Assembly: GCA_944358675.1 (NCBI GenBank)
Contig: CALVRN010000003.1
Location: 3,163 to 67,162 of the forward strand
DNA from: an uncultured Bacilli bacterium
GTDB lineage: Bacteria; Bacillota_I; Bacilli_A; RF39; UBA660
Reading direction: 5' to 3'
Length of the DNA stretch: 64,000 bases
Below are positions 38,136 to 39,249 of this stretch, piece after piece; positions within the stretch are counted from its first letter, which is position 1; every line of letters starts with the position of its first letter. The notes beneath the pieces are model-generated. The model made no database searches and was not told where the DNA came from. It saw nothing but the letters and a program-made list of their open reading frames with translations. The position numbers and the translations under genes were made by a program.

Positions 38136-38164
38136 AATAAAAGAAAAAGAGAAACTATTTTCTC
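38136..38164 (-). terminator. terminator directly after the 341-aa major-subunit candidate
   Basis: gagaaa-ctat-tttctc hairpin (38149-38164) abutting the stop codon. The minus strand then reads TTTTCTTTTA. Confidence 0.55.
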
Positions 38165-39190
38165 TTATTCAGTTGCGGTTGTTAGTTGAAGGTCAAAGGT
38201 GATTTTTCCACCTGATGCGTTGTTTTCACAGTCGACATCTTGTCCTTCAATCCACATATAAACTCTAACTTTTGTTACACCTTTTTCAAGGTTTATTAAT
38301 GCTTGATTTTCATCAAATCCAGTTTCAGTTTTAATTGCTGGAGTTACTGTTTGGAATAATGTAGCATTATTACTACCAGTACTTGTTCCATCATGTTTAG
38401 CTTGTCCTAAAGTAATACCTTCTTCTGTTCCAAAGGCAGCTTTAATACCATCATAGGTTACAGCAGCATTTCCTGTACCTTGATTTACGGTTACACCATA
38501 AACATCACGGGCGTTAGCAACACCATAAGCTGTATGATCATCATAGTTTGGTTCCCAAATTGTTACTGGTGAAGCAGCCCCATCATTAATTGATTGAAGG
38601 GATGATACTGATTCACCACTATCTTTGTTACCTAGTACAACAAAGGCAACTCTGGTAGCATTTTTAATACCTTTATCATTATCATCAGCAAAAGTAATAC
38701 CTGAATTTGAAGTTAAATAAATTTGAGCAGCTTCTTCTGTTCTTAAGAAGATATCATAAGCAACGAAAGCTCCTGATGCTGTAGTGTTGGTTTCAGTAGA
38801 TTTAGAAGCAGATAAGACAAAATCTCCTCCATCGTCTGCTGTTACGGTTCCTAGGAACATTTCCATTTTTCCAGTACTATCTACAGTTCCTACAGATGAA
38901 ACTGGTTCAATAGTTGCTGGAATTTGGTTAACGGCTGCGGTATATGTTCCGCTAGCACTTGTTAAATCTGATACATCCAAAATTGATTTCCAGTTTTGAG
39001 CATCAGCTGATATTTGTAAACCACTTTTAGCTGTAACGTTTACATCAATTGGGTTTACAGATACTGTTTTATTGGCTGTAAACCAAGCATAAGTTGCAGT
39101 TCCAAAAATTATACCTGTTCCAATCATTAAAAATAATAGTAATAAAACTCTTCTTTGTTTTCTTTTTTGTGTTTTTTTCTTTTTTTCCAT
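38165..39190 (-). CDS. SipW-cognate secreted protein, candidate major fibre subunit (paralog of 50321..51307)
   Basis: 341 aa. Signal ...LFLMIGTGIIFGTATYAWFTANKTVSV (TasA-class motif). Ala/Thr/Gly/Ser-rich beta-type composition. C-terminal RVYMWIEGQDVDCENNASGGKITFDLQL shared with the paralog. Own promoter and terminator. Confidence 0.7.
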   Translation of the reverse strand: MEKKKKTQKRKQRRVLLLLFLMIGTGIIFGTATYAWFTANKTVSVNPIDVNVTAKSGLQISADAQNWKSILDVSDLTSASGTYTAAVNQIPATIEPVSSVGTVDSTGKMEMFLGTVTADDGGDFVLSASKSTETNTTASGAFVAYDIFLRTEEAAQIYLTSNSGITFADDNDKGIKNATRVAFVVLGNKDSGESVSSLQSINDGAASPVTIWEPNYDDHTAYGVANARDVYGVTVNQGTGNAAVTYDGIKAAFGTEEGITLGQAKHDGTSTGSNNATLFQTVTPAIKTETGFDENQALINLEKGVTKVRVYMWIEGQDVDCENNASGGKITFDLQLTTATE

Positions 39191-39220
39191 CTCTCTATAC
39201 CCTTTCTATATTCTATCAAG

Positions 39221-39249
39221 ATTTTATCACAGTTTTTGACAATTTTCAA
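39221..39249 (-). promoter_or_regulatory. strong promoter for the 341-aa gene: TTGAAA - 17 nt - (TGa)TAAAAT
   Basis: On the minus strand, TTGAAA is the reverse complement of 39244-39249, followed by a 17-nt spacer. TGATAAAAT extended -10 is the reverse complement of 39221-39229. It lies about 30 nt upstream of the GAAAGGG RBS/ATG. Confidence 0.55.

Follow-up and report, generated by a model that had tools for sequence, protein, structure and literature searches.

Within a 64,000-nucleotide stretch of contig CALVRN010000003.1 (assembly GCA_944358675.1) from an uncultured Bacilli bacterium, referred to here as the window, lies a conserved cluster of about 17 genes whose hosts are uncultured low-GC gut Bacilli, and one of these genes raises the question of how it is expressed and what its product is for. 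Gene A, an open reading frame (ORF) at 38165..39190 encoding 341 residues on the minus strand (as are all features described below unless noted), had been picked out in a first-pass annotation of this DNA as an independent transcription unit for a candidate major structural subunit, and the coordinates given there are correct. We find that gene A is supported, by its sequence signals and their retention in relatives, as a real and conserved transcription unit. In our view it is probably a single-gene unit embedded in a signal-peptidase operon as its last member. The predicted product is a precursor whose mature form would be a secreted beta-sandwich protein from a family not yet characterised, and it is probably the bulk subunit of an extracellular structure.

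The 84-nt gap 5′ of gene A (39191..39274) contains a sigma-A-type promoter, TTGAAA-17-TG-A-TAAAAT (39249..39221), with 10 of 12 matches plus the TG of an extended -10. The -35 hexamer TTGAAA lies at 39249..39244 and, after a 17-nt spacer, the extended -10 TGATAAAAT (TG, one base, TAAAAT) lies at 39229..39221, so that both the near-consensus promoter and the GAAAGGG ribosome-binding site of the first-pass annotation are found where it had placed them. Transcription from this promoter would begin a short leader of about 24 nt (39214..39191, with a predicted start at 39214-39213) that carries a conserved AGAATA(G) motif and the strong Shine-Dalgarno sequence GAAAGGG (39206..39200), 9 nt from the ATG; in orthologs the leaders read tAGAATAG followed by AGGAG-type sites. 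We also considered a second -10, TGATAGAAT, just 3′ of the first, and rejected it because its TG is not conserved in the orthologs, making AGAATAG the more likely start of the transcript.

At the other end of the gene an intrinsic-terminator-like element (38166..38135) is formed by the stem AAGAGAAA (38166..38159) / TTTCTCTT (38154..38147) around the loop ATAG, followed by TTTCTTTTATTT. The shorter hairpin described earlier, gagaaa/tttctc with its T-run directly 3′ of the gene, is present at 38164..38135; as first drawn it has an energy of -3.4 kcal/mol, and it reaches -5.9 kcal/mol as an 8-bp stem taking in the AA of the stop codon. A competing fold between the A-tract and the U-tract of the region has -11.2 kcal/mol (z = -2.4). 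We propose that transcription ends, probably incompletely in this strain, at this hairpin, which overlaps the stop codon, and that the hairpin would limit transcription into the next unit.

Judged on the window sequence alone, the promoter and hairpin are only moderately convincing, and one may ask whether both could have arisen by chance in DNA so rich in A and T. Loosely defined promoter-like sites in the region do occur at the chance level (92 found, 97 expected from shuffles), and the hairpin was not called in a terminator scan of the window because its stem contains only 2 G-C pairs, where the scan asks for 3. The stringent class to which the promoter belongs (at least 10 of 12 matches plus TG) is, by contrast, reached by only 83 of 20,000 dinucleotide shuffles of the gap (0.4%). 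There are 15 such sites in the whole window, 11 of them on the mostly coding minus strand and several just 5′ of genes.

A comparison of orthologous loci bears directly on this point. We fetched 81 loci with orthologs of A at 43-66% protein identity, from metagenome-assembled genomes labelled Bacilli, Tenericutes/Mycoplasmatota, Erysipelotrichaceae and 'Clostridium sp. CAG:...', and counted promoters in 77 non-redundant upstream regions and terminators behind 74 orthologs. The pattern TTGNNN-16..18-TGNTANNNT is found in 63 of the 77 regions, with TTGNNN at the same position and at a comparable distance from the start codon, and has the consensus TTGCAA-17-TGnTAtaaT; under a strict definition the promoter is present in 53 of 77, as against 95 of 1078 regions upstream of other ORFs in the same loci. 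Hairpins of -6 kcal/mol or stronger with a T-run, starting no more than 30 nt from the stop, follow 59 of 74 orthologs and 50 of 400 background ORFs, and their stems differ in sequence yet remain complementary (AAGAATGA/TCATTCTT, AAGAGAAA/TTTCTCTT, AAAGGATA/TATCCTTT). Because both elements are conserved in position across dozens of divergent loci, with controls, we conclude from the comparison that they are real features of gene A; the comparative data effectively refute a chance origin, to which we give next to no credence.

The distribution of these signals among the other genes of the cluster is also informative. A terminator follows A in 56-100% of loci, depending on the downstream neighbor, and follows most other cluster genes in 0-10%, the exceptions being the 174-residue protein gene (34%) and the 198-residue protein gene, which closes the downstream unit (62% of 8 loci). 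The full promoter motif occurs in 0-16% of the tightly packed junctions. At the junction between the 507- and 174-residue protein genes the extended -10 is present in 97% of loci and the full motif in 55%, and at the junction between A and a next gene of the 163-residue type the extended -10 is present in all 18 loci of that type (100%) and the full motif in 6%. Gene A is the only gene of the conserved cluster with both promoter and terminator signals, and its promoter is the best-matching one of the cluster.

Within the window itself, a TGnTAnnnT extended -10 is seen in nearly all gaps of at least 46 nt between 38097 and 53128 (at 53119, 52462, 52061, 41525, 39229 and 38122), and it appears to be the usual promoter form of this organism. 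These elements include a promoter-like site TTTACA-18-TGATAAAAT (52061..52032) before the 237-residue protein gene, the first of the cluster; TGATAAAAT (41525..41517) before the 174-residue protein gene, in the gap 41493..41538; and TGATACAAT (38122..38114), which has no good -35 and opens the next unit, from the 163-residue pseudo-peptidase gene onward. The earlier statement that the surrounding genes overlap and lack such signals is therefore accurate for the tight packing of the immediate neighbors, but not for other gaps of the cluster, which carry extended -10 elements of their own. Nor is the cluster a single operon with just one unit inside it.

To what degree, then, is gene A independent? 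It is preceded by a unit of four tightly packed genes (39275..41492, gaps of -20 to +1 nt) encoding, in order, a 174-residue SipW-like pseudo-peptidase, a 188-residue small secreted protein, a 193-residue active SipW-type signal peptidase and a 186-residue small membrane or secreted protein, with no promoters between them. There is no terminator after the last of these, and one is found at that position in only 2% of loci. Since nothing of this kind precedes the promoter of A, transcripts of the upstream peptidase unit would be expected to run on through A as their last gene, and 'independent' overstates its separation from the upstream genes. The additional promoter, on top of read-through from the peptidase unit, would lift the dose of A above that of its neighbors.

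The same observations could be read differently, in that the internal promoter may be minor and A expressed mainly from the promoter in 41493..41538 as the last gene of the peptidase operon, with the hairpin ending the operon and a dose close to that of its neighbors. The missing terminator in 98% of loci and the conserved extended -10 before the 174-residue protein gene are in keeping with this, as are genomes with a single copy of an A/B-type gene, in which it follows the 237-residue protein gene with no promoter of its own and the terminator retained. However, at the junction between the 186-residue protein gene and A (median gap 120 nt in non-redundant loci) the full motif of -35, 17 nt, TG and -10 is kept in 93% of cases, and the extended -10 in 98%, at protein identities of 45-66% and while the rest of the spacer has diverged; in addition to being the best match in the cluster, the promoter has a regulator-like motif of its own in many lineages, as discussed below, and the codon bias of A exceeds that of its neighbors. 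We therefore think it improbable that the internal promoter is minor.

The effective number of codons of A is 30.3, and only one of the 58 ORFs has a lower value. The gene avoids ATA, favors AAC and TTC, and makes no use of GCG, ACG, GTG, TCG, GAG, CAG, CTG or CCG. Alanine, glycine, threonine and valine together make up 40% of residues, compared with 11-32% for other cluster genes. Both composition and codon usage are consistent with high expression. The paralog of A, gene B (50321..51307, 328 residues), is arranged differently, without a promoter or terminator of its own, overlapping the 237-residue protein gene by 17 nt and ending 21 nt ahead of the gene for a 2379-residue protein. As the first-pass annotation had reported, the two products are clearly related (43% identity, E 8e-90), and both carry TYAWFTAN and the C-terminal block YMWIEGQDVDCE.

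That annotation had also likened the arrangement to tasA within tapA-sipW-tasA. The analogy is imprecise, since that locus is described as one operon (PMC4292775), and we found no internal tasA promoter in the searchable literature. A better precedent is Bacillus cereus calY, which is monocistronic and lies beside the sipW-tasA operon (PMC4292775): there, as here, a SipW-type peptidase operon adjoins a unit of one gene whose product is a matrix or fibre protein dependent on SipW, and the paralog of that product is encoded in a different transcriptional context. The resemblance is one of layout, as CalY and TasA are proteins of about 200-260 residues in the TasA/camelysin family, whereas the 341-residue product of A has no detectable sequence or fold relation to them, and the cluster here is far larger, with four SipW-like genes, the 2379-residue protein and a nucleoside triphosphatase (NTPase) pair.

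We turn now to the protein. Residues 1-35 (39190..39086) have the features of a signal peptide, with a basic n-region MEKKKKTQKRKQRR, a hydrophobic core and a TYA/WF junction. Its SipW type is confirmed by a match to TIGR04088, the NCBIfam model of SipW-dependent signal peptides, over residues 21-48 (20.5 bits, cutoff 19), and 47 of 107 members of the A family match it as well; paralog B does not match the model at E 0.01 or better. Cleavage had been expected after A-W-F-T-A, and here the annotation has to be corrected: alignment with TasA, whose junction is GGTWA/AFND and whose fibre structure 8aur begins at residue 28 (the TasA sequence used was validated against 8aur and 5of1), places the predicted SipW site at TYA/WFTAN, after Ala35. 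In the 107-sequence family alignment (35-65% identity) W36 and F37 are invariant, and the strand that follows, NKTVxVxxIxVNV, is highly conserved. An AlphaFold2 model built from this alignment has a predicted local distance difference test (pLDDT) score of 92.7 and shows a helix at residues 2-38 followed by an all-beta sandwich, with a low-confidence hinge (pLDDT below 50) at residues 34-40, exactly at YAWFTAN.

These features suggest a route by which the precursor would be exported and cut after Ala35 by a cluster-encoded signal peptidase of the archaeal/endoplasmic reticulum type, probably the one encoded two genes upstream, releasing a beta-sandwich protein of about 306 residues with a nearly invariant new N-terminus, WFTANKTVSVNPIDVNV. 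We propose that this protein is a high-copy structural subunit of an extracellular fibre or matrix, together with other putative SipW-type substrates, namely paralog B, four small pilin/TasA-like proteins and the 2379-residue repeat protein, and that its conserved N-terminal strand may serve as a donor strand, as in TasA-type fibres. The label of major subunit is plausible, though unproven.

Other proteins of the cluster are compatible with this proposal. Two active-type peptidases (39819..40400 and 32496..33062) match TIGR02228 at 1.5e-21 and 2.4e-23 and have intact SxSMxP and VTHR boxes. At least eight cluster proteins besides A have a [ST]-[YF]-[AG]-x-[FY] junction after an N-terminal hydrophobic segment; the 198-residue protein shares FAWF with A, and the 237-residue protein shares a C-terminal EGDDPEC motif. 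For the small 188-residue neighbor, g188, a model built from database homologues (pLDDT 76) gives its best fold matches to sortase pilins (5.6e-4 to 3e-3, including LrpA at 5.6e-4 and BcpA at 1.6e-3), followed by AbpA (8e-3), CanA (1.9e-2) and TasA (3.7e-2) of the TasA superfamily. These pilin/TasA-like matches are marginal because the model is of only modest quality, and by sequence hhalign of the g188 family with TasA yields a probability of 0.4%, and a Pfam scan of 54 g188 relatives finds no TasA or Peptidase_M73 domain. Among those cluster proteins that were scanned, none was recognised as a sortase. We infer that the cluster, in which the 2379-residue repeat protein is encoded next to paralog B, resembles a fibre locus coding for a major subunit along with minor ones and an adhesin.

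As noted above, in many lineages the promoter of A is accompanied by a regulator-like motif. The core of the Spo0A box is TGTCGAA (PMC3485338), and this sequence is present on the coding strand no more than 150 nt upstream of A in 25 of 77 loci, including L026, L034, L035, L029, L060 and L047. It occurs upstream of only 8 of 1078 other ORFs, in 0.6% of random windows and upstream of the 15 other cluster genes in 0-8% of cases; the motif therefore appears to be specific to A among the 16 cluster genes compared. Counted from the -35, the boxes start at -33, -23/-24, -13/-14 and +7 to +10, and these steps of 10 bp put them on one face of the helix, and in several loci tandem boxes lie 3 bp apart (for example TGTCGAAaatTATCGAA in L026). 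The phased boxes make it probable that Spo0A~P controls A directly in the lineages that carry them, about a third of the total, and relatives carry SpoIVA, YabG, SpoVG and YabP next to the cluster. In the window the corresponding motif is the degenerate TGTCAAA (39241..39235), located in the promoter spacer 8 nt past the start of the -35, where close orthologs have TGTCGAA at +7/+8. A change of G5 to A in a 0A box lowers Spo0A binding in vitro about 10-fold (PMC3485338), and since the window has this weak-binding variant, direct Spo0A control, while plausible for the A family, is uncertain for this strain.

Several observations weigh against a major subunit expressed from its own unit. The transcription start, the efficiency of termination and the abundance of the protein are all deduced from sequence. 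The terminator in the window is among the weakest of the orthologs and falls short of the scan's thresholds, so that some read-through into the downstream unit is likely, and the codon bias is only suggestive because the window lacks a reference set of ribosomal protein genes. No exact 0A box, the consensus of direct Spo0A targets, is present upstream of A in the window, and neither spo0A nor a clear sporulation gene was found in the window. At the level of the protein, Pfam gives no consistent family for A or its 107 relatives; a profile search of the Protein Data Bank (PDB) with the 107-sequence alignment returns nothing below E = 0.03 and does not find TasA, AbpA, CanA or AbpX; and Foldseek finds nothing better than E = 0.14 in the PDB or 9e-3 in BFVD. 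Kinship with TasA is not supported, the hhalign comparison of the family profile with TasA giving a probability of 0.3%. Finally, R180, E213, H219, E315, D318, D320 and C321, which are invariant or nearly so in the 107 sequences, could point to a lectin or enzyme with a metal site, and not to a fibre interface. The single PDB profile match at 0.03, to a tailocin fibre, is spurious.

On another reading, A encodes a carbohydrate-binding protein or an enzyme that is secreted in quantity, stays soluble and does not polymerise, with a jelly-roll fold and a metal site, the structural role falling to other cluster proteins. Among the top, non-significant Foldseek matches of A are carbohydrate-binding modules and glycosidase beta-sandwich domains, in addition to generic viral jelly rolls; three family members weakly match the F5/8 type C domain; and E213, H219, E315, D318 and R180 could together form a metal site. 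These polar residues may bind a metal, perhaps calcium as in the calcium-dependent subunits of archaeal fibres, or may make up a site for a ligand or for catalysis. A soluble protein of this type seems to us improbable, in that no library yields a significant match, the composition of A is of the structural-protein type, and both the extreme conservation of the mature N-terminal strand and the coupling of the paralog to a giant repeat protein would be hard to explain.

A somewhat stronger contender accepts the same unit architecture and has the product form a sheath, an S-layer-like array or some other coat in two dimensions, or else a spore-surface layer or appendage made at the onset of sporulation, perhaps anchored in the membrane by an uncleaved N-terminal helix. 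S-layer genes, too, are typically single-gene units with strong promoter and terminator signals. The 0A-box motifs specific to A, the sporulation genes that flank the cluster in relatives, the lack of a fold match between A and fibre subunits, and the deposition of TasA under the name 'spore coat-associated protein N' can all be cited in its favor. Pfam scans of A, on the other hand, found no SLH, CWB2 or other wall-anchoring domain, the invariant SipW-type junction argues for cleavage, and in its small pilin/TasA-like subunits and giant repeat protein the cluster resembles fibre loci. We think a coat or spore layer unlikely and favor a fibre or matrix subunit.

Comparison with known systems shows both how familiar and how distinct such a subunit would be. 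With B. subtilis tapA-sipW-tasA the cluster shares an aromatic SipW-type junction (TWA/AF in TasA, TYA/WF in A), a secreted beta-sandwich subunit and a co-encoded peptidase, but it has no TapA homologue and A has no detectable TasA homology; the Pfam scan of A and its 107 relatives found no Peptidase_M73/TasA domain. Both would depend on Spo0A in some form, by an indirect route in B. subtilis (PMC10134886) and, as proposed here, through direct boxes upstream of A. In Clostridium perfringens, also a spore-forming Firmicute, a SipW peptidase accompanies several TasA-like matrix proteins (BsaA, BsaB and BsaC) with a reported link to type IV pilins (PMC11580942), and type IV pilin-like genes are found near the present cluster as well; the BsaA model TIGR04090, however, matches only one of 107 A-family members, and weakly (E = 0.04).

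The donor-strand filaments of the archaeal TasA superfamily (AbpA, CanA, AbpX, Saci_0406 threads and Tafi) are built from jelly-roll subunits with an amphipathic N-terminal strand right after the cleavage site (W2-I12 in AbpX), and their loci encode a signal peptidase I, minor subunits and a tip adhesin (PMC9245690; bioRxiv 10.64898/2026.01.04.697558). The marginal fold matches of g188 to AbpA and CanA are a point of similarity, but A itself matches none of these subunits by sequence or Foldseek and is about twice their size; its conserved, amphipathic N-terminal strand in the model is only suggestive of donor-strand complementation. Sortase-assembled Gram-positive pili (BcpA, LrpA, EbpC) have a similar layout of major and minor subunits and a large adhesin, and the best fold matches of g188 are to shaft pilins. 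The A protein, however, ends in FDLQLTTATE, with neither the LPXTG motif nor the hydrophobic C-terminal segment of sortase-dependent pilins, and processing here would be by SipW-type signal peptidases; it also gives no match to N_methyl/TIGR02532, the N-terminal methylation motif of type IV pilins (G|FTLxE), which is cut ahead of the hydrophobic segment. Our search for literature on the sequence motifs yielded nothing relevant. By these comparisons A would work like a SipW-dependent matrix or fibre subunit yet belong to a distinct, uncharacterised family, membership in the TasA family being unsupported. The observation made in the first-pass annotation was thus largely right and is partly confirmed, and its interpretation is partly supported.

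The family to which A belongs is large, with 3581 database relatives, all unannotated, and 1529 clusters at 50% identity, and 153 blocks of a public assembly index contain exactly this protein. We put forward, tentatively and as a conjecture that may well prove wrong, that it is the shaft or lattice protein of an unrecognised SipW-dependent surface structure widespread in uncultured small-genome gut Bacilli, built from some nine SipW-type substrates, with active and catalytically dead signal peptidases in pairs and a DUF2357 protein as the partner of a membrane P-loop NTPase. Spo0A, acting directly at the phased 0A boxes, would turn on its major subunit, and the structure would be parallel to TasA fibres and not homologous to them. 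The layout of A is in itself ordinary, since surface structures often have their most abundant component transcribed from a dedicated promoter to a dedicated terminator. Here it marks a single member of a large, unannotated family as the protein likely to make up the bulk of a conserved surface apparatus in gut Bacilli that have never been cultured, and so offers a concrete handle, a single gene to express, purify, image and raise antibodies against. If the conjecture is right, there would be a fibre system parallel to that of TasA without homology to it, built on a family of more than 3500 sequences that lacks a Pfam domain, a solved relative and any annotation. The phased Spo0A boxes on A alone would be a newly seen, testable link from sporulation or transition-state control to a surface structure outside Bacillus and Clostridium, and the probably dead peptidase paralogs, like the pair with the membrane NTPase, may represent assembly factors for which the TasA system has no known counterpart.

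The pseudo-peptidases of 174 residues (40968..41492) and 163 residues (37605..38096) align with the active enzymes and lack both the SxSMxP serine box and the VTHR histidine box; on this basis they are probably catalytically dead paralogs, and each is the first gene of its unit. The downstream conserved unit (31919..38096) contains seven genes, encoding the 163-residue pseudo-peptidase, proteins of 305 and 326 residues, a 504-residue membrane P-loop NTPase, a 369-residue DUF2357 protein, a 188-residue active SipW-type peptidase and the 198-residue protein with the FAWF junction. The NTPase (34178..35692) has N-terminal hydrophobic segments and a Walker A motif, GISGTGKTS, and matches the PADLOC candidate model PDC-M26A at 5e-34; this was its sole match, and we rejected an McrB-like assignment, to which PDB sequence matches give no support. 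The DUF2357 protein gene (33055..34164) adjoins it, and because the pair is found in a fixed order within the cluster in about 30 loci it seems to belong to the apparatus and not to be a defence system inserted there.

The 2379-residue protein (43160..50299) has an N-terminal hydrophobic segment and dozens of degenerate (V/I)YGG(G/S)N...T repeats, gives no Pfam or NCBIfam match, and may be an adhesin or tip component. Between its gene and that of the 507-residue protein, an apparent gap of 97 nt (43063..43159) contains a conserved ORF of 34 residues, MKEIETKELIEAYNQIISYLKELEQLKKAGESNA, with its own AGGAGG site, and L001 and L002 have called ORFs of 41 and 37 residues in the corresponding position. 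A 185-residue protein with a type IV pilin-like N-terminal methylation motif is encoded a short way upstream of the cluster, at 52501..53058, with its own promoter and terminator, and an 873-residue protein with such a motif is encoded at 18232..20853.

The best terminator-like structure of the region is a strong 16-bp hairpin at 31896..31933, between the convergent genes for the 198-residue protein (minus strand) and a 194-residue protein (plus strand), and it is probably a bidirectional end of the cluster. Between genomes the cluster is circularly permuted exactly at the boundaries of the promoter-bearing units (L028 1..20933; L053, L055, L066, L067, L074 and L078), which supports the division into units proposed here. 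In L028 the order is 174-188-(193+186 fused)-A-305-326-504-369-188b-198-(194 reversed)-237-B-giant, where numbers are protein lengths, and the active SipW and the 186-residue protein are fused in one ORF of 365 residues (8711..9808).

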